Part shown: positions 3,703 to 14,406 of the stretch, one piece after another
Numbering within the stretch: the first letter of the stretch is position 1
How the letters are laid out: every line of letters starts with the position of its first letter
Assembly (NCBI GenBank): GCA_035703635.1
Contig: DASSXV010000045.1
Span: 1 to 17,605, forward strand
Reading direction: 5' to 3'
Source: Trueperaceae bacterium
Lineage (GTDB): Bacteria; Deinococcota; Deinococci; Deinococcales; Trueperaceae
DNA length: 17,605 bases
Made by a program: the position numbers and the translations under genes
Notes under the pieces: model-generated
The model's database searches: none
The model's input: the letters and a program-made list of their open reading frames with translations, nothing else
Told to the model about the DNA's origin: nothing

Positions 3703-4158
3703 TCATCGTTCTCGCTCGTCCGCGGCGGCTTGTGCGGCCGCGAAGCGTTCCCGCAGCCGCGCGAAGCCGCGCTCGAGCACACTGGTTGGCACGACTACCT
3801 GGACGGTGGTGCCCTCCCCGACGACGTCGCCTAGCTCGTTGACGGCGACGCAGGTGGCGTGAACCCGGTTGCCTGTCACGTGCTCGCAGCGCGCCGTTAG
3901 CGTCACGCGCATGCCTGGCAGGGCGGACGCCAAGTGGCGCACGCTGACGGCGTGGCCGATGCCGTCCTCACCCTCCTCGAGGAACGGCAGGATGAGCTTG
4001 CGGCTCGTCAACTCCATGTGCTTGACCAGCCAGTAGGTGGCGTAAACCGCGTGGAGCTGCCCGAGGCGCGCGTCCGTGCGGTCCTCGAAATCGACGGTCA
4101 TGGCGGGGGTCACGAGGATCTCGTGGCTAGCCTCGAAGCCTGGCGGTAGCGGCCGCAT
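3703..4158 (-). CDS. Hotdog-fold thioesterase, fluoroacetyl-CoA thioesterase (FlK)-like
   Basis: VYATYWLVKHME...GIGHAVSVRHLAS retains the Thr/Glu/His triad pattern; starts 1 nt after the paaH-like stop. Confidence 0.82.
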   Translation of the reverse strand: MRPLPPGFEASHEILVTPAMTVDFEDRTDARLGQLHAVYATYWLVKHMELTSRKLILPFLEEGEDGIGHAVSVRHLASALPGMRVTLTARCEHVTGNRVHATCVAVNELGDVVGEGTTVQVVVPTSVLERGFARLRERFAAAQAAADERER

Positions 4159-4159
4159 G

Positions 4160-5689
4160 TCAGCCGCCCAGCGGGCTTGTGCCGTGGGTCACATGCCGCC
4201 GCAGGAGCGAGCTAGGTGCGTAGCGCTCCATCCCGAACTCACGCTGCAGGGCGCTGAGCCCAGCCATCACGTCTGCCAAGCCCAACTCGACCGCCCACGC
4301 TAGCGGTCCTTCCGGGTAGTTCACGCCCAGGCGCATGGCGAGGTCGAGCGTGGCGGCGTCGGCCAGGCCTTCCGCTAGGGCGATGAACGCCTCATTGATG
4401 AGCCCAGCGACCAGCCGGAACGCCACCCCGCCAGGCTGATCCGGCACCACTAGCGTGACGAGTCCGGCGGCGTTGAGCAACCCACGTACCCGCTCGCCAG
4501 TTGGCCCGGTGGGCGCGAGGAGCTCGACGGTCGTACTCTCGGCAGCTAGGCGTGCGGGCGGCGGCACGACGCTGAAACCTACGCCCTCCGCCGGCGCCGT
4601 CCTTGCCCAGCACAGGGTGAGGTCGGGCGTGCGCTCAGCGGTGGTCGAGTCCGCTGCAACGCGAGCGTCGATCACTAGGTCAGCTGCGGCAGAGGGCGGC
4701 ACGGCGAGGAAGCGCGTGCGTAGCCACGCGGCAACCGGCCCGGAGCCGAGCACGTGCGCGCTCGGGAGCCTGGCGGCGGGCGCCGTCAGGGCCGCCGCGC
4801 CCGGCTCCGACCTCGCGGGCGCAACGGGTTCTCCGGCCTCGTAGCGGTAGAACCCCCACCCCGTCTTGCGCCCGAGCCTGCCTGCCGTCACCAGCGCGCG
4901 CTGCATTGGGTGCGGGCGGTAGCGCGGCTCCTGATAGAACCCTTCGTAAACGCTGGTGCTGGCGGCCAAGTTCACGTCGAGCCCGATGAGGTCAAGGAGC
5001 TCGAATGGCCCCATGCGGAAGCCCGTTGCTCGCATGGCCGCGTCGACGGTGGCGACGTCTGCGCCCTCCGCGGCCAACCGGATGGCCTCGAGGTAGAAAG
5101 GCCGCGCGAGGCGGTTGACGATGAAACCCGGCCGGTCCTGCGCCACGACCGGGCTGCGCCCGAGGCTGCGCGCCATGGCGACCGCCGCCGCCGTCAGCTC
5201 CGGCGGCGTATGCGCGCCAGGCACGATTTCGACGAGCTGCATGAGCGGGGCTGGGTTGAAGAAGTGCACGCCGACGACGCGCTCGGGCCGCTTGCATGCC
5301 GCGGCCACGGCGGTCACGGAGAGAGTCGACGTGTTCGTAGCGAGGTAAGCGCTTGGCGCGCGCCGCTCCACCTCGGCGAACAGGGCGCGCTTGATGGCGA
5401 GGTCCTCTGGGGCCGCCTCGAACACCCACTCCGCACGGTTGCCGTGCGGCAACTCCTCGGCAACCGCTAGCCACTCCAGGAGTCGCTCTGGGCGCTCCTC
5501 AAGCCGGCCCTTCGCGTGGAGCTTGGAGAACGTCTCTTCGAGGCTCGCCTTAGCCGCGGTGGCCGCGCCAGGCAGAGGGTCGACAAGCAACACCGGTGCC
5601 CCGGCCTGCAAGAGTAGCTGCACGATGCCGCGGCCCATCGTGCCGCCGCCAAGGACGACCGCACCACCTGCGCTCCAACGCCCGCTCAT
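4160..5689 (-). CDS. paaH: 3-hydroxyacyl-CoA dehydrogenase, PaaH (3-hydroxyadipyl-CoA dehydrogenase)-like, long form
   Basis: GGGTMGRGI (NAD-binding), EAAPEDLAIK, ATNTSTLS, GVHFFNPAPLMQLVE, PGFIVNR, MGPFELLDLIGLDVN, GRLGRKTG, second C-terminal domain LGVNYPEGP; 509 aa. Confidence 0.85.
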   Translation of the reverse strand: MSGRWSAGGAVVLGGGTMGRGIVQLLLQAGAPVLLVDPLPGAATAAKASLEETFSKLHAKGRLEERPERLLEWLAVAEELPHGNRAEWVFEAAPEDLAIKRALFAEVERRAPSAYLATNTSTLSVTAVAAACKRPERVVGVHFFNPAPLMQLVEIVPGAHTPPELTAAAVAMARSLGRSPVVAQDRPGFIVNRLARPFYLEAIRLAAEGADVATVDAAMRATGFRMGPFELLDLIGLDVNLAASTSVYEGFYQEPRYRPHPMQRALVTAGRLGRKTGWGFYRYEAGEPVAPARSEPGAAALTAPAARLPSAHVLGSGPVAAWLRTRFLAVPPSAAADLVIDARVAADSTTAERTPDLTLCWARTAPAEGVGFSVVPPPARLAAESTTVELLAPTGPTGERVRGLLNAAGLVTLVVPDQPGGVAFRLVAGLINEAFIALAEGLADAATLDLAMRLGVNYPEGPLAWAVELGLADVMAGLSALQREFGMERYAPSSLLRRHVTHGTSPLGG

Positions 5690-5733
5690 GTGATGCGACT
5701 ATAGCCCCTGCAGTTCGCGGCGCTGCGCGCGGC

Positions 5734-7245
5734 CTATTCGTGCGCCACGTAGCGCGTGGCCAGCCACAGGCGGGCTAGGTTCTTCGGGCTCGAGAGTGGC
5801 GCGCCGACTAGCTCCTCGATGCGCTTCAGGCGGTAACGCAGCGTGTTCACGTGCAAGCCGAGCTGTGCGGCGAGGGCGTTCAAGTCGTTCGGGGCGGCGA
5901 GGTAGGCGGTGAGGGTGGCGAGGAGCTTGCCGTGGTGATCAGCTTCGAGCAGCGGGGCGAGGATGCGCCGTTGCAGTGGCCCGAGCCCGGGTTGTTGCCG
6001 TGAGAGCAGCACGTCGATCGGGTCAACGTCGTCGAACGAGAAGAGGCCGCCACCTGGCGGCGCACCCTCCAGGGCGAGGCGCGCCTGCTCGTTGGCCTCT
6101 GCCACCTCCGCGAGGGTCGAGTGGACCTGGCTCAGGCCGATGCGCGCGCTGCCTGCCGTTCCTAGCGCGGCGTCGGCGGCTTCGATCAGCGCCTCGGCCT
6201 GTTCGTGGCTTGGTTGGCCGCCTGGGACACTGAAGGCGAACGTTGCCGTGGCGCCTTCGCTGCCTGCCAGCACGGCGACGCCGCGCTGCTGGAAGTAGTC
6301 CTCTCCCGCCTCGCGTATCAGCGCGGCGGCGCGGTGGCTGGCGCCGCCGTCAGCTATGGCCACCTGATACGGCGTGCCAGCGCTGAACCCGGCGGCTGCG
6401 AGGCGCGGCGCTAGCGCGGTGATGCTCGGCGCTGCCAGCCACGCTGTTAGGAGGACCTCGCCCGCCGCCGCGACTGCTCTCACTTCCGACGCGGTAACCG
6501 CCGCCGCGGCGGTTAGGAAGCTGCGCGTGAGTTCCAGCCACGGGCGCGCCGCATCCGGCGCCTCGAACGCGAGCAGTACGCCCTGGAGCCTGCCAGCAAC
6601 CTCGACGCGGTAGAGGTGGGCTGGGCGCCCCCCGAGGCGCACCGCGCCCTCCTGCCAAGTCGTAACGGGCGCCGCGCTGGCCTTGGGCGTTTGCGGCCGC
6701 CATGCGCCCGTCCCCGCGCGCGCCAGGACCTCACCCCATGGGCTGACGAGCACCAGGTCAAGGCCGGTGAGGCGGTTGAGGCGGTCGAGGAGGTCGCGCT
6801 CGGGCTTGGCCGCCGCCATGCCAGCAAGCAAGTAGGACTGCGGCGCGGCCAGCGCGGGCCCAACGCCCGCCGTTAGCGCGACGAGCCCGCGCAACGCCGC
6901 TACCTCGACGATTCCAGGCGCCACGTCGGGCGGGGCCGTGACGAGCGCGGCGCCGGCTGCCGCGACCCTGCTGGCCAGTTGCCCTGGGAGAGTGCGGCTT
7001 GTTGGGGTGAGGGCGTAGACGATGACGGCCGGCGCGGCGCGTAGCAAGTTGTCGTGCGAGGCCGCGCCGGCCGCTTCGTCTGCTAGCGCGATCCTGAGGT
7101 CGCCTGGCGCCAACCACGCCCTGTCTGGCAGGCGCTCTGCCCACCTAACGGAGCGGTAGCGGGCGTCCGCCGGTCCGGCCACCAGGGTGAGACCGAGTTC
7201 CGCCTGCGCGAGCAGCTCGGATAGCGGCGACCCCGTGGGAAACAC
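5734..7245 (-). CDS. PucR/CdaR-family transcriptional regulator
   Basis: C-terminal HTH LLATLTAYL...AAQLGLHVNTLRYRLKRIEEL; N-terminal PucR-like region. Start moved from 7305 to GTG 7245, 6 nt downstream of TACAAT (leaderless geometry). Confidence 0.88.
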   Translation of the reverse strand: MFPTGSPLSELLAQAELGLTLVAGPADARYRSVRWAERLPDRAWLAPGDLRIALADEAAGAASHDNLLRAAPAVIVYALTPTSRTLPGQLASRVAAAGAALVTAPPDVAPGIVEVAALRGLVALTAGVGPALAAPQSYLLAGMAAAKPERDLLDRLNRLTGLDLVLVSPWGEVLARAGTGAWRPQTPKASAAPVTTWQEGAVRLGGRPAHLYRVEVAGRLQGVLLAFEAPDAARPWLELTRSFLTAAAAVTASEVRAVAAAGEVLLTAWLAAPSITALAPRLAAAGFSAGTPYQVAIADGGASHRAAALIREAGEDYFQQRGVAVLAGSEGATATFAFSVPGGQPSHEQAEALIEAADAALGTAGSARIGLSQVHSTLAEVAEANEQARLALEGAPPGGGLFSFDDVDPIDVLLSRQQPGLGPLQRRILAPLLEADHHGKLLATLTAYLAAPNDLNALAAQLGLHVNTLRYRLKRIEELVGAPLSSPKNLARLWLATRYVAHE

Positions 7246-7252
7246 GCCGTTA

Positions 7253-7298
7253 TTGTAGCGGCCTACAAGTGCAGCCGTGAGATTGTGCGAACCTACGA
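7253..7298. promoter_or_regulatory. Two candidate operator sites for the PucR-family regulator
   Basis: Perfect inverted repeat TTGTAG-cggc-CTACAA (7253-7268) and a degenerate copy TTGTgc-gaac-CTACgA (7283-7298), 30 bp apart; the first overlaps the regulator's own TACAAT. Confidence 0.65.
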
Positions 7299-7335
7299 TT
7301 CCCAAGACTTCCGTGGCTAGTTACGCTAGGCGGCA

Positions 7336-7881
7336 GTGAACGCGACTACCTCCCACATCGACCACCGCACCTACCGTGACGCCCTCGGTCGCTTCGCCAC
7401 CGGCATCACGGTCGTGACGACAAGCGTCCCGCGCCAACCCGACGCGCCGATGACCGAACTCGACCCGCTCTTCCACGACCGCGAGACCCTCGGGATCACC
7501 GTCAGCTCCTTCATGGCCGTATCGTTGGACCCGCCCCTGGTGGTCGTGTCCATCGACAAGCACGCCAAGGCGCACGCCACGCTGCAAACGGCCGAACGGT
7601 TCGGGATCAGCGTCCTCGCGGAGGAACAGGGGTACCTCTCCGACCTCTTCGCTGGCAGACCGGTGGCCCGTCCAGGCCAACCGTTCGAGGAGCTAGCTGG
7701 CTTCCCCGTCGTGAAGGGCGCCCTCACCCAGCTGGTCGTGAGCCGCCACAGCGCCTTCGAGGCCGGCGACCATACCCTCTACTTCGGCAAGGTCGAGGCC
7801 GTCAGGCAGCAGGACGGCGAACCGCTCCTCTACTTCCGTAGCGCCTACCACCGCCTGCCTGCGCCCGTCCAACCCCGCTAG
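7336..7881 (+). CDS. Flavin reductase, HpaC/DIM6-NTAB family (reductase partner of a two-component monooxygenase)
   Basis: [63 protein letters not shown] 8 nt upstream. Confidence 0.92.
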
Positions 7882-7957
7882 CAGGCGCGGGCGACCCGCG
7901 GCGCCGTTTGGTAGCTTTGACGCTGGTGTAAGACCATCAGAGAAGGCGGTAACCAAC

Positions 7958-9361
7958 GTGAGCGAAGCACTCGCACGGGCCTTAGGGGCAGCAACCGAAG
8001 CGGCAGAAGACCAAGTCAAGCAGCTCATGGAGTTCGTGAGGATCCCGAGCGTCAGCACCGACCCAGCGCACGGCGCCGACATAACAGCCGCAGCCGACTG
8101 GCTGGCAGAGCGCATGCGCCAAGTTGGCGTGCCGGACGTGAGCGTCATGCCAACGGCAGGCAACCCCGTAGTGCTCGGCCGTTGGCACCACGACACCGCA
8201 CTGCCGACCGTCATCATCTACGGGCACTACGACGTGCAACCACCCGAACCGCTCGAACTCTGGAACTCGCAGCCGTTCGACCCGGTGTTGAGGGACGGCC
8301 GCCTCTACGGTCGCGGGGCAAGCGACGACAAGGCCGGCGTGCTGATCGCGCTAGGCGCCGTGGCAGCCACTGCCAAGGCTGGCGGAACGCCCCCGGTCAA
8401 CGTCACCCTGCTCGTCGAGGGTGAGGAGGAGATCGGCAGCCCCAACCTGTCCGCGTTCTTGGCAGCAAACAGGGAACTCCTGCGAGCCGACCTGGCGATC
8501 AGCGCAGACGGCGGCATCTTCGACGTCGGCGTGCCGTCCGTTACGGTCGGTTCGCGCGGGTTGGCTGGCGTCGAGGTGACAGTGAACGGCGCGAACGCCG
8601 ACCTGCACTCAGGCATGTTCGGCGGCGCGGTCGCCAACCCCATCATGGCGTTGGCGCACATCCTCTCGTCGTTGCAAGACGAGCAGGGCCGCGTGCTGGT
8701 CGCGGGCTTCGAGGACGGCGTCGAGCCGTTGAGCCAAGACCTGCGCGCCGCCGTTGCCGCGGTGCCGGAAGAGGGCGCCGGGCCGGCCGCGCTAGGACTG
8801 AAGGGCTGGTGGGGCGACCCGAACTACACGCCAGCTGAACGCCGGGTCGTGCGCCCAACCCTCGAGGTCAACGGCATGTGGGGCGGCTACCAGGGCGGCG
8901 GCATCAAGACCGTGCTTCCGAAGGAGGCGCACGCCAAGATCACGTGCCGCCTAGTCGTCGGCCAAGACCCTGACCGGGTGGTCGAGGCGCTAAGCGAGCA
9001 CATCCACAAGCACGCACCCGCCGGAGTGACGGTGACGGTCAAGCCGCTGGCCGGGAAGGGCCGCGCCTACCTCATGCCGCTCGACCACCCGGTGCTCGCC
9101 CTCGCGAGCGATGCCATGGAGGCCGCGTACGGGCCGCGACCGTTCCCCGTTTTCACGGGCGGCACCGTGCCAGTGGCCGAGCAGTTCGGCAGCGTGCTCG
9201 GCATGTGGTGCCTCTACTTCGCGTTCGGCGAACCGGACAACGGACTTCACGCGCCGAACGAGTTCTTCAGGGTAGCGGCGTTAGCGCAAGGCACCGACGC
9301 CACCGTCAGGCTCCTCTACTCGCTCGCGCGCTCACCAGAGGCGCTCGTAGCCCTAACCTGA
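7958..9361 (+). CDS. M20 family metallo-dipeptidase/amidohydrolase (ArgE/DapE/CNDP-like)
   Basis: [51 protein letters not shown]. Confidence 0.92.
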
Positions 9362-9382
9362 CGGCAGAGGAGGCGACCAACT

Positions 9383-10840
9383 ATGGCGGTGCGCAGCGGC
9401 GAGCAGTTCCTGGAGGGCCTGAGGCGCTCACCGCCTAACCTCTACGTGGACGGGGTGCGCGTCCTCGACCCAGCCGCGCACCCAGCTACCGGAGCCGCGG
9501 CGCGCGCGATCGCGGAACTCTACGACCTACAGTTGCGCCCCGACCTGTTGGAAGGCATGACGTTCGCCGGCGCGGACGGCGCGCGCTTTGGCATGAGCTT
9601 CCTCGAACCGTCGACGGTCGACGACCTGCGGCGCCGATCGCGCATGCACCGCACGTGGGCGAGGCACTCGTTGGGGTTCATCGGGCGCAGTCCCGACTAC
9701 CTCAACGTCAACCTCATGGCTAGCGCTCGCGCCGCCAGCTACTTCGCCCGCGGCGACGAGCGCTTCGGCGCCAACATCCGGCGCTACTTCGAGCATGTGC
9801 GAGGCAACGACCTGTGCCTCACGCACGCCCTCACGGACCCGCAAGTCAACCGCGCAGTGGCCACCGACCGCCTCCCCGACCCTTACATCGCGTTGGGGGT
9901 CGTCCGTGAGACGGGCGAAGGGGTCGTCGTGCGCGGCGCGCGCATGCTCGCCACCCTGCCCATCGCGGACGAACTGCTCATCTTCCCGGCGCCGGGCGGA
10001 CAGACGGCCGTCGACCCGACGCGCTACGCCCTGGCTTTCGCGGTGCCTTGCAACACGCCCGGGCTGACGTTCATCGCGCGCGAACCGCTGTGGCCGCGCC
10101 GCAGCCGCGTAGACCACCCGCTAGGCTCGCGCTTCGACGAGCTAGACGCGCTAGTCACCTTCGACGATGTGCTCGTGCCGTGGGAGAGGGTCTTCCTCCT
10201 CGGCGACCCCGAGCTCGCTGCCGGGGTGTACGGGGCAACGAACGCCGCGTACCAGATGGGTCACCAAGTCCTCAACGTCAAGATCGTGAAGGCGCAGGCG
10301 TTCCTTGGGGTGGCGGAGCTCATCGTGCGCGCCATCGGCAGCGCCCAGTTCCAGCACGTGCAACAGAAGATGGCCGAACTGATAACCGTCCTCGAGACCC
10401 TCGAGTCGCTCCTCACCCGGGCAGAAGAACGCGCCACCCCGGACGAACACGGCACCATGACGCCGGACCGCGCCACCATGAACACGGCGCGCGCGTACTT
10501 CCCGCAGGTTTACCCGCGCATGGTCGAGATCCTGCAACTGCTAGGCGCCAGCGGCATGATCATGCTGCCGAGCGAAGGCGAACGCTCAGGGCCGATGGCC
10601 GACGCCATCGACAAGTACCTGCAGTCGAGCACCCTGGCGGCGGGCGAGCGGCTGCGGCTCTTCCGCCTCGCGTGGGACATGACCATCTCCGCCTTCGGCG
10701 GGCGCCAGAACCTCTACGAGAAGTTCTTCTTCGGCGACCCGGTCCGCAACCAGGCGGCGCTTTACCACGCGTACGACATGAGCGGCCCCCTCGCCCTCGT
10801 CGAAGCGTTCCTCGGCGCAAGCGACCAGACGGATGCCTAA
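9383..10840 (+). CDS. hpaB: 4-hydroxyphenylacetate 3-monooxygenase oxygenase component-like protein (HpaB family, FADH2-dependent); substrate may differ
   Basis: GRSPDYLN, THALTDPQVNR, RGARMLAT, SRFDELDA..FDDVLVPWERVF, FGGRQNLYEKFFFGDP; SD GAGGAGG upstream. Confidence 0.9.
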   Translation: MAVRSGEQFLEGLRRSPPNLYVDGVRVLDPAAHPATGAAARAIAELYDLQLRPDLLEGMTFAGADGARFGMSFLEPSTVDDLRRRSRMHRTWARHSLGFIGRSPDYLNVNLMASARAASYFARGDERFGANIRRYFEHVRGNDLCLTHALTDPQVNRAVATDRLPDPYIALGVVRETGEGVVVRGARMLATLPIADELLIFPAPGGQTAVDPTRYALAFAVPCNTPGLTFIAREPLWPRRSRVDHPLGSRFDELDALVTFDDVLVPWERVFLLGDPELAAGVYGATNAAYQMGHQVLNVKIVKAQAFLGVAELIVRAIGSAQFQHVQQKMAELITVLETLESLLTRAEERATPDEHGTMTPDRATMNTARAYFPQVYPRMVEILQLLGASGMIMLPSEGERSGPMADAIDKYLQSSTLAAGERLRLFRLAWDMTISAFGGRQNLYEKFFFGDPVRNQAALYHAYDMSGPLALVEAFLGASDQTDA

Positions 10841-10904
10841 GCCTGGGTACGCCCAAGACGGAGTCCGTGCGGTCGGCATGCGAGTATCGTGCCTAGACTG
10901 AGGT

Positions 10905-10928
10905 ATGAGGAGGCGGGGCCGCGCGTGA
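10905..10928 (+). other. Possible leaderless Arg-rich micro-ORF (MRRRGRA*) overlapping a GC hairpin in the leader of the solute-binding protein gene
   Basis: ATG AGG AGG CGG GGC CGC GCG TGA, 5 nt after TAGACT (10894-10899); hairpin arms 10919-10925/10930-10936. Confidence 0.3.
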
Positions 10929-10969
10929 GCGCGCGGTGCGCCGCCGCGACCAAGTCCCTGGAGGGAATC

Positions 10970-12184
10970 ATGCGTAAGTTGAACAGTCGTCCAACCTTCC
11001 TCGCGACGCTCGCCTTGGCCGTCTTCGGCTGGGCCCTGGTCGTGCCCGCCACGACCGGGTTAGGCGTGGCCCACGCCCAGTCGCAAGTCCTGCGCGTTGG
11101 GGCCGTGATCTCCAGCACCGGAGAGTCCGCGGCCCTCGGAGCGAGCGAGGCCAACACTCTCGCCCTCCTCGCCGACCAGCTAGCTGGCCGCAGCGGGGTG
11201 CAGGTCGAGTTGAGCGTGCTCGACGACGGCTCGCAGGTCGAAAAGACGATCGAGCTCGTCAACGGGTTGCTAGCCGCGAACGAGGTAGACGCCATCATCT
11301 GCTGCACGCGCTCGGAGGCCGCCCTGGCCGTGGTTGCGCCCATGCAGGCTGCGCGGGTCCCGCTCATCAGCCTCGCGGCAGCAGCGCCGATCGCCAACCC
11401 GGCTGAGTCGCGCCGCTGGGTCTTCTCGACCGCGCCGTCCGACACTCTCATCCTGCACGGCGTAGTGGCCGACATGCGCGCCCGTGGCGTGAGCGACATG
11501 ACCTTCGTTGGCCTGGCCGACGCTTTCGGGGAGAGCGGCCTAGTCGAGTTGCAGCTCCTCCTCCCAGGCAGTGGCATCACCCTTGACACCGTCGTGCGCT
11601 ACGACGCTCAAGCCACGTCCTACACGGCGCCCGTGCTTGCCGCCACGCTGTCGCGCCCGCAAGTGGTGCTCGTGTGGGGCATCGTCGACGACTCGGCGCG
11701 CATGGTCAGAGAACTGCGGACCCTAGGGTTCGGCGGCGACATCTACGTCAGCCACGGGGTCGGCAACCACCGCTTCATCGAACTAGCCGGCGCAGCCGCA
11801 GAAGGCGTGCGCTTGGCGGTAGGACCGCTGCTCGTCGCGGCAGACCTCGCGGCCACCGCCCCAGGGCGAGACGTGAGCTTGGCGTACGCCAACGCCTACG
11901 CCGCCGCCTACCCGGGTGAGACGGCCACTACTTTCGGCGGGCACGCATACGACGCCGTGATGGCGCTCGTGAACGCGGCCGACTTCGCTGATGCGCGTGG
12001 GGCGTTCGACACCGCTGACCACGTCGCCAGGCGCTTGGCGTTGCGCGACGCCATCGAGGGCATGGGCCCGTTCGTCGGCATCGGCGGGGTGTTCGACTTC
12101 ACCGGCACCGATCACTCGGGTCTTGACGACCGCGCTTACGTGATCGCGGAGATCAAGGACGGCGCCTGGCGCTTGGCTGACTGA
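10970..12184 (+). CDS. ABC transporter substrate-binding protein, LivK/HAAT type; resembles the aromatic-binding RPA1789/CouP-like subfamily
   Basis: Signal peptide ending AHA-Q; AVISSTG..AALG, DAFGESGL, YVSHGVG, TTFGGHAYDA, GVFDFTGTDHSGLD; start moved to ATG 10970 after GGAGGG. Confidence 0.85.
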   Translation: MRKLNSRPTFLATLALAVFGWALVVPATTGLGVAHAQSQVLRVGAVISSTGESAALGASEANTLALLADQLAGRSGVQVELSVLDDGSQVEKTIELVNGLLAANEVDAIICCTRSEAALAVVAPMQAARVPLISLAAAAPIANPAESRRWVFSTAPSDTLILHGVVADMRARGVSDMTFVGLADAFGESGLVELQLLLPGSGITLDTVVRYDAQATSYTAPVLAATLSRPQVVLVWGIVDDSARMVRELRTLGFGGDIYVSHGVGNHRFIELAGAAAEGVRLAVGPLLVAADLAATAPGRDVSLAYANAYAAAYPGETATTFGGHAYDAVMALVNAADFADARGAFDTADHVARRLALRDAIEGMGPFVGIGGVFDFTGTDHSGLDDRAYVIAEIKDGAWRLAD

Positions 12185-12201
12185 CCAGCACCGAGGTAAC
12201 T

Positions 12202-12237
12202 AGTGGGCCGCGGCGCCGTTCCTGGCCGCGGCCCACT
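12202..12237. terminator. Hairpin between convergent genes, probably a bidirectional terminator
   Basis: Perfect 13-bp stem AGTGGGCCGCGGC / GCCGCGGCCCACT with a 10-nt loop; no strong U-tract. Confidence 0.7.
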
Positions 12238-12246
12238 CGTGTGTGG

Positions 12247-12738
12247 TTAACCGATCGGGTTGTCGAGGCCGGCAGCGCGGCGGTAGAGCATCAGCTGACC
12301 TAGGTGGTAGGTCTCGTGCCACACGAGGAACTCGAGGCGCTCACGCACCGTCCTGCGGCTGGCTGGCGCGGCCAACTGCTCCGGCGTAAGCGCCGCGATC
12401 GCCGCGAGCAGCGGCACGTTGGTCAGGTCGTACGCCCTCACCTGCTCGGCTAGGGTCGCCGTGGCCTCAGCGGCAGGCTTGCTGCCGTAGCCGAAGGCCT
12501 CGTCCACCTCCTCAGGGCGCACGCGCCCTACTCCAAGGAGCGCGAGGATGGAGTCACGGTTGCCGACCAGGTGCCCGACCAACCAGTTCATGTGACTGCC
12601 GTCCTCCACCAAGGAGACGAGGGAGGCCGCCTCTGGCATGTCCGCGGTCAGTTGCAGCACGATCCGATGATTACGGGTCAAGGTGTCTGCGAGGGTGGTG
12701 CGCAGGAACGCGGCCGTCAGTTGGTCTTGGTCTGTCAC
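12247..12738 (-). CDS. DinB/YfiT family protein (putative metal-dependent thiol transferase fold)
   Basis: HMNWLVGHL and WHETYHLGQL His motifs; start probably GTG 12738 (SD GAGGTG) or GTG 12747; directly follows nfo. Confidence 0.82.
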   Translation of the reverse strand: MTDQDQLTAAFLRTTLADTLTRNHRIVLQLTADMPEAASLVSLVEDGSHMNWLVGHLVGNRDSILALLGVGRVRPEEVDEAFGYGSKPAAEATATLAEQVRAYDLTNVPLLAAIAALTPEQLAAPASRRTVRERLEFLVWHETYHLGQLMLYRRAAGLDNPIG

Positions 12739-12748
12739 GAGTGTCACC

Positions 12749-13591
12749 TCAGAGGAATGCACGGAGCTTCTCCATATCGCGGGCGTGGCCAAGGTCGTCG
12801 TCGCCCAGCGGCGTCTCGAGCAGTTTTGGTACCGCTGCAAGGCGCCCGTCGTTGACGATCACGGCGAATGCCTCTGCGCCGATCTCGCCGTCACCGATGT
12901 TCTCGTGACGATCCTTGTGTGAACCGAGCGGGTGCTTGGAGTCGTTGAGGTGCACGCACAACAGCCGCTCGATTCCGACGATGCGGTCGAACTCCTCGAG
13001 TACGGCCTCATAGCCAGCTGGGGTCCTGAGGTCGTAGCCAGCCGCGAAAGCGTGGCAAGTGTCAAGGCAGACGCCGACCCTCTCCGGCTGGTCGAGCAAA
13101 GCGATGATGCTGGCTAGCTCCTCGAAGCGCACCCCGATGGTCGAACCCTGCCCCGCTGTGTTCTCGAGCAGGAGCTTGGTGCGCACATCCGGGCTGGCGG
13201 CAAGCACGGCGTCCATGTTGCGCGCGACGTCCTCCACGCCGACTAAGACCCCAGCGCCGAGGTGCGCCCCCGGGTGGAACACGAGGCCGGCAACGCCGAG
13301 TAGATCGCAGCGCGCGAGCTCGTCAGCCAGCCCGGCGCGTGACTTCTCGGAGATGTCCTCCTTCTGCGACGCGAGGTTGATGAGGTACGCGGCGTGCGCG
13401 GTCACCGGCCACGGGTGGGTGGCGTGCGCCTCGTGGAACTTCTGCACGTCGGCGGGGTCGATGGCCTTAGCCCGCCACTGGTTAGGGCTCTTGACGAAGA
13501 TCTGCAGCGCCGTGCAGCCGATCTCCAGGCCGCGTTCGAACGCCTTGTAACTGCCCCCGGCAGTGGAAACGTGAGCGCCAATGAGTGCCAT
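12749..13591 (-). CDS. nfo: Endonuclease IV (AP endonuclease)
   Basis: IGAHVSTAGG, AHAAYLINL, FHPG, LLENTAGQG, CLDTCHAFAAGYD, HLNDSK, DRHENIG, ETP; start moved to ATG 13591, 7 nt after TAAACT. Confidence 0.96.
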   Translation of the reverse strand: MALIGAHVSTAGGSYKAFERGLEIGCTALQIFVKSPNQWRAKAIDPADVQKFHEAHATHPWPVTAHAAYLINLASQKEDISEKSRAGLADELARCDLLGVAGLVFHPGAHLGAGVLVGVEDVARNMDAVLAASPDVRTKLLLENTAGQGSTIGVRFEELASIIALLDQPERVGVCLDTCHAFAAGYDLRTPAGYEAVLEEFDRIVGIERLLCVHLNDSKHPLGSHKDRHENIGDGEIGAEAFAVIVNDGRLAAVPKLLETPLGDDDLGHARDMEKLRAFL

Positions 13592-13647
13592 GAGGATGAG
13601 TTTACCTAGCGCTCGGCCAGCTCGCCCGCGTTGATACACTCGCCTGC
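13592..13647. promoter_or_regulatory. Back-to-back promoters for leaderless nfo and nucS transcripts
   Basis: Minus strand TAAACT-N7-ATG; plus strand TGa-TACACT-N7-GTG (13632-13650); neither gene has an SD. Confidence 0.65.
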
Positions 13648-14406
13648 GTGGTAAGAGACCTGCTGACCGACCCGGGCCCGGAAGAGCTAGTAGCGTTCCT
13701 AGACGAGCACTTGCGCGCTGGTGGCGAACTCGTTCAAGTGGTTGGGGAGTGCGAAGTCCTCTACAGCGGGCGCGCGGCCAGCGTCGCAGAGGCCGGGGCT
13801 TACATCGTGCTCGTCAAAGCGGACGGCAGCGTGCAAGTACAGGGGCCGCGCGGCGTGAAGCCCGTGAACTGGCAACCACAAACGGACGACGTGCGCGTCA
13901 CCATGGAGGACGGTTACGCCGTGCTGGTCGCGGAGCGCTTCAGCCCGGCCGAGTTCGTCAGGGTGGCGTTCCAAGTGCCAGTTCTCGCGCTCGCCATGCG
14001 GCTCGAGGAGAGCGGCAACTTCGTGCTCATGGGCAGTGAGGCCGACATGCAACGCGCCCTCGCGCGCGACCCGGAGATCATCGAACCCGGCCTGGTCGTC
14101 ATCGAGCTCGAGCTTCCCACGGACGTCGGTGGCATCGACCTCTTCGCGCGCGACAGCGAGGGGCGCCTGGTCGTCGTCGAGCTCAAACGCGGCAAGGCCA
14201 ACCACGAGGCCGTCCACCAGCTTGATCGCTACGTCAAGAGCGTGCGCGCCCGCTACCCGGGTGAGGTGCGGGGAGTGCTCGCTGCCCCGGCCGTGACGGC
14301 GCCCGCGCTTAACCGCCTCGGCGCGTTAGGGCTCGAGTTCCGCGAGGTCACCGCTTTGCCTGGCGCCGCCGATGAACCAGCAGCGCAACCTGGCCTGTTC
14401 GGGTGA
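13648..14406 (+). CDS. nucS: Endonuclease NucS/EndoMS (mismatch-specific endonuclease), full two-domain form
   Basis: YSGRA, VKADGSV, KPVNWQP, SEADMQ, IDLFARD, VVVELKR, AVHQLDRY; C-terminal QPGLFG. Confidence 0.92.
   Translation: MVRDLLTDPGPEELVAFLDEHLRAGGELVQVVGECEVLYSGRAASVAEAGAYIVLVKADGSVQVQGPRGVKPVNWQPQTDDVRVTMEDGYAVLVAERFSPAEFVRVAFQVPVLALAMRLEESGNFVLMGSEADMQRALARDPEIIEPGLVVIELELPTDVGGIDLFARDSEGRLVVVELKRGKANHEAVHQLDRYVKSVRARYPGEVRGVLAAPAVTAPALNRLGALGLEFREVTALPGAADEPAAQPGLFG

Follow-up and report, generated by a model that had tools for sequence, protein, structure and literature searches.

A reduced homoprotocatechuate operon with a remodelled HpaB-family hydroxylase in a Trueperaceae bacterium

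Why should a bacterium keep a regulated phenol hydroxylase when it has no detectable ring-cleavage enzyme? This physiological question is raised by a gene cluster on a contig of a Trueperaceae bacterium (GenBank DASSXV010000045.1 of assembly GCA_035703635.1), which was analysed over its whole length of 17,605 nt (hereafter the window; contig C34 of genome G000, which is 97.65% complete). The cluster consists of a gene for a PucR/CdaR-type regulator on the reverse strand, followed on the forward strand by genes for a flavin reductase (FlR), an M20 metallopeptidase (M20), an HpaB-family oxygenase (HpaB) and a solute-binding protein (SBP) (Table 1). This gene order, the strands and the open reading frames agree with a preliminary description of the DNA made from the sequence alone, and the gaps of 76 nt (FlR-M20) and 21 nt (M20-HpaB) given there are correct. 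With a probability of roughly 0.6, we regard the cluster as a 'hydroxylate-only' module, i.e. a reduced homoprotocatechuate (hpa) operon that has been retuned to a phenol other than an aryl-carboxylate.

The origin of the cluster became apparent when HpaB orthologs and 6 kb of DNA to either side were compared among 30 relatives, to which a metagenome scan contributed 70 further loci. The gene order of the window is repeated in L111-L116, L121 and L124, all from the same genus (short forms). In L117, L120 and L122 of this genus and in L123 of the sister genus, about 3.5 kb lies between the M20 gene and hpaB and about 1 kb follows hpaB, and these extra stretches code for HpaI, HpaG-C, HpaE and HpaD, each scoring above its NCBIfam cut-off (long forms). 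The same four proteins, again all above their cut-offs, surround the HpaB ortholog in L122, L126 and L131. L001 carries PucR-FlR-M20-HpaI up to the end of its contig, and in ten more metagenome loci FlR and/or M20 is followed by hpaIGE. Long and short forms share the flanking genes SpeA, MBL, DinB, Nfo, NucS and GalT. Because of these common flanks and the HpaB tree, the window cluster is identified as a descendant of a hpa operon of the type usual in this order. Its ancestral form was a divergent PucR gene and FlR-M20-hpaI-hpaG-hpaE-hpaB-hpaD-SBP (followed by ABC permease/ATPase genes), and the long operons of the relatives therefore indicate that the window form was made by the deletion of hpaIGE and hpaD.

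The M20 gene is an addition to the hpa operon and is seen in two genera. L126, which belongs to another genus, contains FlR, PucR, hpaI-G-E-B-D, SBP and LivH/LivG without M20, and the arrangement in two other families of the order is hpaI-G-E-B-FlR-D-(3HCDH)-SBP-permease, where 3HCDH denotes a 3-hydroxyacyl-CoA dehydrogenase gene. The preliminary description stressed the position of the peptidase gene between the two halves of the monooxygenase, but hpaI-hpaG-hpaE once separated M20 from hpaB, and the present adjacency is secondary because these ancestral genes were deleted. Nor is the PucR-type regulator a special mark of the cluster, since such regulators adjoin the hpaB locus in 13 of the 30 loci, distributed over four families of the order.

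Ring-cleavage genes are lacking not only in the window, where the absence of hpaD/E/G/I had already been noted, but also genome-wide for the known families searched. In G000, HpaD gave no tblastn match at E<=1e-5 and no match to its family TIGR02295, and tblastn with HpaI, HpaG and HpaE detected nothing but paralogs of 28-42% identity; the separate canonical hpa cluster that the preliminary description proposed to look for was thus not found in this genome. Family searches of G000 for LigB, intradiol dioxygenases and homogentisate dioxygenase found none, as did that for catechol 2,3-dioxygenase (top score, 19.6 bits). HPPD, whose product is homogentisate and which is not itself a cleaving enzyme, and group II (pyridoxal-phosphate, PLP) decarboxylases were likewise not found in G000. 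HpaD was found in 0 of 10 short-cluster genomes, of which one consists of a single contig (98% complete) and another has a rated completeness of 100%. Of the 21 genomes that gave the non-short HpaB rows, 20 contain HpaD, and the one without it is 67% complete. As a side observation, the organism seems to be without the usual routes of tyrosine and phenol breakdown, as judged from the families searched.

The reduction is a recurrent one, with at least three origins in the HpaB loci compared. The comparison set comprised 48 rows (>=60% identity; 44 distinct), 20 of them short and 28 long; the genomes are mostly metagenome-assembled and the relatives are not independent. On the HpaB tree, no fewer than three changes are needed to account for the short state, and three are demanded by well-supported branches. 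L176, in which PucR-FlR-M20-HpaB is followed by Nfo without SBP, is nested among long forms of the sister genus, and the short form L185 is placed at the base of the window's genus. In a tree of the flanking genes Nfo, NucS and GalT, the short L121 lies within a long-form clade (support 99/98), and these markers reject one clade of the 8 short rows in the approximately unbiased (AU) test (p-AU 0.00015); L124 was outside this set. With Nfo and NucS only and L124 included, a single short-form clade was not rejected (p-AU 0.09); the loss in L124 need not be a separate one. The junction DNA of the short forms (M20-HpaB and HpaB-SBP) consists of spacers too diverged to reveal common deletion breakpoints. 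Erosion has gone further in some loci: SBP is missing in L176 and L117, and at positions 3937-5931 of L004 only FlR-M20 remains between MBL and DinB, with HpaB, SBP and PucR gone (SpeA and NucS there are 79 and 64% identical, respectively).

The HpaB of the window passes the HpaB-1 model TIGR02309 (635.5 bits; cut-off, 480.2) and aligns with Thermus HpaB (2yyg) over residues 3-478 (E=1.5e-151). The catalytic Arg100, Tyr104 and His142 of the Thermus enzyme, to which passages of a review (PMC10537072) ascribe the binding and activation of the phenol hydroxyl, are kept as Arg102, Tyr106 and His148. As described in the same source, Ser197 and Thr198 hydrogen-bond the carboxyl of 4-hydroxyphenylacetate (4-HPA), the range of substrates is governed by the beta8-beta9 loop (193-213), and mutants at the homologous positions of Escherichia coli HpaB show many-fold higher activity on tyrosol, tyramine or tyrosine. 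This is the region that has been altered in the window: Ser197 and Thr198 correspond to Ala203 and Pro204, and the loop reads FPAPGGQT instead of FPSTVLKE, the latter being found in all operons that still contain ring-cleavage genes. All 28 long rows have Pro-Ser-Thr. Of the 20 short rows, 3 (L121, L124 and L185) retain this motif, whereas it has been replaced in 17, namely 16 of the window's clade and L176 (Ala-Ala), representing two separate events. The long rows have 237 invariant columns, of which 28 differ in the window, and 6 of the 14 such columns in the beta8-beta9 loop are affected (hypergeometric P=0.0025); five of the 28 changes lie within 276-288, a segment chosen post hoc. Asn152, four residues past the catalytic His, is Asp clade-wide, and Lys207 is Gln or Ser. 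In a wider set of 150 HpaB-family representatives, the loop was too variable for safe alignment, and the occurrence of 'ST' in 15 of about 150 serves as background only. The preliminary description named an ordinary 4-HPA hydroxylase as an outcome that would contradict its proposal; with the carboxylate-binding Ser/Thr, the hallmark of a 4-HPA enzyme, replaced, the enzyme of the window's clade does not appear to be one.

A matching change was found in SBP. Its best matches in the PDB are 3sg0 (5.6e-47), 4dqd, 7ylt and 3tx6/4fb4 (E-values of 5.6e-47 to 5.3e-34), and 7ylt is taken to be IadK2 from the agreement of five named residues with its chain letters at one offset. According to passages of PMC10374108, IadK2 and 4FB4 belong to the aromatic B-III group, and Phe168, Trp172, Arg199, Phe308 and Tyr311 of IadK2 are required for the binding of indole-3-acetate (IAA). 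The pocket Phe (F308) is conserved in the window SBP, and Arg199 aligns with Ala213. The pocket arginine would bind the carboxylate of the ligand. This column is occupied by Ala or Ser in all 14 loci of the window's clade (clade A) as well as in the window itself, and by Arg in 21 of the 25 loci with a Ser-Thr HpaB (3/3 short and 18/22 long).

The genes that were retained are under purifying selection. In comparisons of the window with L111-L116 (short-cluster loci of its own clade), dN/dS was 0.12-0.23 for HpaB, 0.18-0.21 for M20, 0.23-0.42 for SBP, 0.25-0.65 for FlR and 0.35-0.46 for PucR; the values for the neighbouring genes NucS and GalT were 0.07-0.12. RNA-library contigs from two studies span most of the cluster, and single contigs bridge FlR-M20 (7288-8446) and M20-HpaB (9133-9573); contig depths and stretches left uncovered by individual runs were given no weight.

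Taken together, these data point to the following scheme for the 'hydroxylate-only' module. The deletions of hpaIGE and of hpaD would have left the regulator, reductase, M20, oxygenase and SBP. As its family membership suggests, FlR would pass reduced flavin to HpaB, which, with its triad conserved, would ortho-hydroxylate a phenol to a catechol. Since no dioxygenase of the searched families was found, the ring is probably not opened by the organism, and the catechol would be the end product. 4-HPA is probably no longer the preferred ligand, because the carboxylate-binding residues of HpaB have been replaced and the pocket Arg of SBP has been lost; a phenol whose tail is neutral or carries a positive charge, in line with the charge changes, may have taken its place. 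M20 was already resident in the operon and is probably co-expressed, but need not feed HpaB.

Several points weigh against this scheme. L121, L124 and L185 are short and retain both Ser-Thr and the SBP Arg, and because three short lineages do so, 4-HPA hydroxylation without ring cleavage is also viable. Part of the change in the pocket could stem from a relaxed constraint on the binding of the tail. The replacements in HpaB and SBP fall on one stem branch and hence represent one event, not a statistical correlation. L121 has changes in common with the window at 8 of its 12 changed positions (e.g. Tyr61Phe, Tyr136Phe, Val276Pro, Arg281Gly and Ala282Val), which may reflect parallel change, common descent or transfer. 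The HpaB tree by itself places L121 and L124 in one group with the clade of the window (support 84-94), and an AU test of the HpaB data is indecisive about single versus multiple short origins (p 0.51). Because of this value and of the rejection of a single short clade by the flanking markers, the HpaB tree was not used alone for loss counts, and the single nested origin of L124, L121 and the window's clade suggested by HpaB-only trees was set aside for counting losses within the genus. The dN/dS ratios are rough, as dS (0.7-1.1) is close to saturation, and the RNA-library contigs may carry DNA, so that a single transcript is not demonstrable from them. Finally, a ring-cleaving enzyme of a novel type could exist in the organism.

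A more specific version of the scheme is possible, which we advance only tentatively. Short forms would be independent conversions of the operon, in several Trueperaceae-like lineages, into a regulated 'catechol-maker' that has given up ring cleavage and retains the regulator, FlR, M20 and HpaB. In the window's clade SBP and HpaB would have co-adapted to a phenol with a neutral or cationic tail (for instance tyramine, tyrosol, tyrosine or one derived from a peptide), with the catechol as a useful end product, and not an intermediate, serving, for example, in metal binding, redox protection or pigment formation.

The pathway proposed in the preliminary description appears unlikely. It supposed that SBP imports an amide-linked phenolic (a Tyr-dipeptide, N-acyl-tyrosine or aroyl-amino acid), that M20 cleaves the amide and that HpaB hydroxylates the phenol. 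The tight co-linearity of M20 with its neighbours, the GGAGG located 9 nt upstream of the HpaB ATG and the contig that joins M20 and HpaB would suit such a pathway, and M20 accompanies HpaB and FlR in each of the independent reductions seen (in 19 of the 20 short rows, L082 being cut upstream). Furthermore, in a tree of 112 rows the 15 cluster M20s form a clade of their own (100* support; stem, 0.52). This clade is distinct from at least three further M20 lineages found in the order, and its closest neighbours are rows from Chloroflexota, Thermomicrobia and Gemmatimonadales. The PDB relatives of the window M20 are Sso-CP2 (9e-57), CNDP2 (3e-53) and DUG1. Sso-CP2 is a carboxypeptidase that also takes N-blocked amino acids. 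A 21-letter stretch and GLHAPNE are readable in the M20 translation and may hold the metal ligands and catalytic residues of the family. Free tyrosine, being zwitterionic, would also suit a HpaB pocket that has lost positive charge and acquired negative charge.

The history of the operon argues against this pathway. Besides the secondary nature of the M20-hpaB adjacency, M20 was present in the operon when HpaB still had a canonical 4-HPA site, and it survives without HpaB, SBP and PucR in L004. The window M20 is changed at 12 of the 213 columns invariant in 13 long-form M20s; four of these positions are changed in all of the 4 clade members tested, and none of the four is common to L121, L124, L185, L176 or L004. 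M20 has thus not changed alongside HpaB and SBP. It also scores as an ordinary 'dipeptidase' equivalog (NF006053; 500.8 bits; cut-off, 441). The expectation that M20 would be syntenic with hpaB in relatives holds within a narrow range: 17 of 18 genomes from the window's genus, plus one from a sister genus, contain a cluster-type copy (>=65% identity). A wider association across genera and families was not borne out by the neighbourhood search, their hpa clusters being without M20 and other genera having only M20 hits of 42-46% identity in unlinked places. At 77 of 80 M20 homolog loci from other organisms, no HpaB, FlR or PucR was found nearby.

Three side observations concern other M20 genes. 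G000 contains a second paralog (C23:91457-92776), which is 37% identical and is a conserved gene of this genus; no paralog of the class seen in other genera (42-46% identity) was found in this genome. Among the 80 M20 loci, the sole M20-HpaB neighbourhood outside the window's lineage is in Bacillus horikoshii (L028, 5331-12293), where genes for an amidase, M20 (45%), a PLP enzyme, HpaB (43%) and GDPD occur without hpa ring-cleavage genes. The PLP enzyme, encoded on the other strand, has Ala_racemase_N and D-ser_dehydrat domains. This locus is not counted as support.

That HpaB is an ordinary 4-HPA 3-hydroxylase is more improbable still. 4-HPA would then be taken up and hydroxylated, and homoprotocatechuate excreted or used by community neighbours, which would be compatible with the mixed sludge, leachate and soil communities in which the organism is found. 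The score against TIGR02309, well above the cut-off, the intact catalytic triad and the short forms L124 and L185, in which the whole canonical loop and the SBP Arg are intact, all accord with such a role. In the window's clade, however, both carboxylate-binding residues are replaced, the loop is rebuilt, the pocket Arg of SBP is lost and the charges at Asn152 (to Asp) and Lys207 (to Gln/Ser) are altered. Least credible of all is a decaying remnant of useless genes on their way out, for despite the progressive erosion (the loss of 3HCDH and thioesterase genes in some clade members, of SBP in L176 and L117, and of all but FlR-M20 in L004) and the lack of ABC permease genes beside SBP, all 20 short rows have whole reading frames, the catalytic residues have been kept, the Shine-Dalgarno sites are preserved, HpaB dN/dS is low over a dS of 0.7-1.1 and the cluster is covered in the RNA libraries of two studies.

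Table 1. Positions of the cluster genes, of the sites discussed in the text and of the two adjoining genes
Feature	Position	Strand	Remarks
FlK-type thioesterase	3703-4158	-	downstream of regulator, on the regulator's strand
PaaH-like 3-hydroxyacyl-CoA dehydrogenase (3HCDH)	4160-5689	-	downstream of regulator, on the regulator's strand
PucR/CdaR-type transcriptional regulator	5734..7305	-	HTH_30 and GGDEF_2; divergent from reductase gene
NAD(P)H-flavin reductase, HpaC-like small component (FlR)	7336..7881	+	Pfam Flavin_Reduct, 112.8 bits
M20 metallopeptidase, cluster-specific paralog of the PRK08201 'dipeptidase' family	7958..9361	+	Peptidase_M20, 120.5 bits; M20_dimer, 71.2 bits
HpaB-family FADH2-dependent phenol ortho-hydroxylase (predicted), from 4-HPA 3-hydroxylase stock	9383..10840	+	HpaB_N, 294 bits; HpaB, 219.3 bits
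Remodelled HpaB beta8-beta9 loop, codons of residues 201-208 (FPAPGGQT)	9983..10006	+	
HpaB-SBP spacer, 129 nt, with a semi-conserved element including TAGACT (10894-10899)	10841..10969	+	
Orphan periplasmic solute-binding protein (SBP), aromatic-acid (B-III) branch of the LivJ family	10970..12184	+	Peripla_BP_6, 134.2 bits
SBP Ala213 codon (column of IadK2 Arg199)	11606..11608	+	

The remaining features of the cluster are as follows. In the regulator, the helix-turn-helix domain is C-terminal (HTH_30, 66.1 bits; cut-off, 27) and a GGDEF-like domain occupies the middle (GGDEF_2, 31.2 bits; cut-off, 24.5); GTG at 7245 is an alternative start. None of the named equivalogs PmfR, AdeR and CdaR was matched by this protein (top score, 42.7 bits; cut-off, 800). 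FlR is present in one copy in G000, and its top NCBIfam model is HpaC_Thermus at 116.6 bits, which is under the cut-off of 200.

The longest SBP frame extends from 10889 to 12184. Its true start is more likely to be the ATG at 10970 than 10889, because GGAGGG is found 5-6 nt upstream of this codon and the N-terminus that follows resembles a signal peptide; the HpaB-SBP spacer is then 129 nt. One RNA-library contig starts at 10907, 8 nt past TAGACT in this spacer, and an element resembling GCA..ATCGTG..TAGACT recurs in related HpaB-SBP spacers. These features give a weak hint that the element acts as an internal promoter or operator of the SBP gene. Scans of 5600-12400 for sigma-70 promoters and intrinsic terminators yielded 0 and 0, a result that is uninformative for this phylum. 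The next gene past SBP is the DinB gene on the opposite strand, and no permease or ATPase genes adjoin SBP; Liv-type genes are present in G000 away from it. In the relatives, SBP orthologs come after hpaD and before LivH/LivG genes, and LivH/LivG-type genes follow SBP in L126, L131 and L168-L174.

On the other side of the cluster, 3HCDH is probably a leftover of the ancestral cluster, because it lies inside the hpa clusters, between hpaD and SBP, in two other families of the order. Stepwise loss is seen in the window's clade: L111 and L116 are without 3HCDH, and L113-L115 are without both 3HCDH and the thioesterase gene. Beyond SBP, genes for three DNA-repair proteins (DinB-family, endonuclease IV (Nfo) and NucS) stand side by side at 12247-14406. 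The longest DinB and Nfo frames share 92 nt, so that translation of DinB probably begins at a codon further downstream than 12840. An RNA-library contig of run X15 skips 43 nt within 12207-12251, between the SBP stop and DinB, which may be a strain variant.

HpaB has been widely engineered at its beta8-beta9 loop for the production of catechols, including hydroxytyrosol, dopamine and L-DOPA. Nature seems to have run the same experiment here, with a 4-HPA hydroxylase that was freed from catabolism, kept under selection and changed at its carboxylate-binding pair. The window HpaB is therefore a candidate enzyme with a new substrate range, and the series from canonical to remodelled forms (L122/L124 to L121 to the window) offers a natural dated series for studying specificity shifts. 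The case is also a warning that the annotation '4-hydroxyphenylacetate 3-monooxygenase', if based on profile scores alone, can mislead on function. In the literature on homoprotocatechuate, 4-hydroxyphenylacetate and Thermus, no paper naming PucR turned up, and a search for Truepera with 4-hydroxyphenylacetate gave no match.

Relative to what is known, the cluster is a new variation on the hpa system and the HpaB family, and not a new kind of system. It shares the orthologous regulator, reductase, hpaB and SBP, in the same order and on the same strands, with the hpa operons of sister lineages, but differs from the canonical homoprotocatechuate meta-cleavage operon in lacking hpaI, hpaG, hpaE and hpaD both locally and genome-wide, and is thus only a remnant of that pathway. 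The M20 scores above the cut-off of the family that includes CNDP2, DUG1 and Sso-CP2 (NF006053, PRK08201) and has putative M20 metal and catalytic motifs, but belongs to a separate paralog clade that is confined to this operon in two genera. SBP finds its best PDB matches, and the pocket Phe, in the B-III proteins of Variovorax (IadK2, 7ylt) and Rhodopseudomonas palustris (3sg0, 4dqd and 3tx6/4fb4); it differs in having Ala in place of Arg199, needed for IAA binding in IadK2 according to passages of PMC10374108, and in being followed by no transporter genes. The Thermus thermophilus HB8 HpaB/HpaC system (PDB 2yyg-2yym) resembles that of the window in family, in fold as judged from sequence, in the catalytic triad and in the use of two components with a small reductase. 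In the window, by contrast, the reductase gene is located upstream, behind the M20 gene, no ring-cleavage genes are present, Ser197/Thr198 are Ala/Pro and the loop is rebuilt. Engineered E. coli HpaB variants (S210/A211/Q212 and loop 207-217; raised activity on tyrosol, tyramine, tyrosine or larger phenols), as described in passages of PMC10537072, are changed at the homologous positions, and the small, flexible Gly-Gly of the window resembles variants that accept other substrates; the replacements in the window differ from these in being natural and fixed in the lineage, with a predicted effect on specificity.

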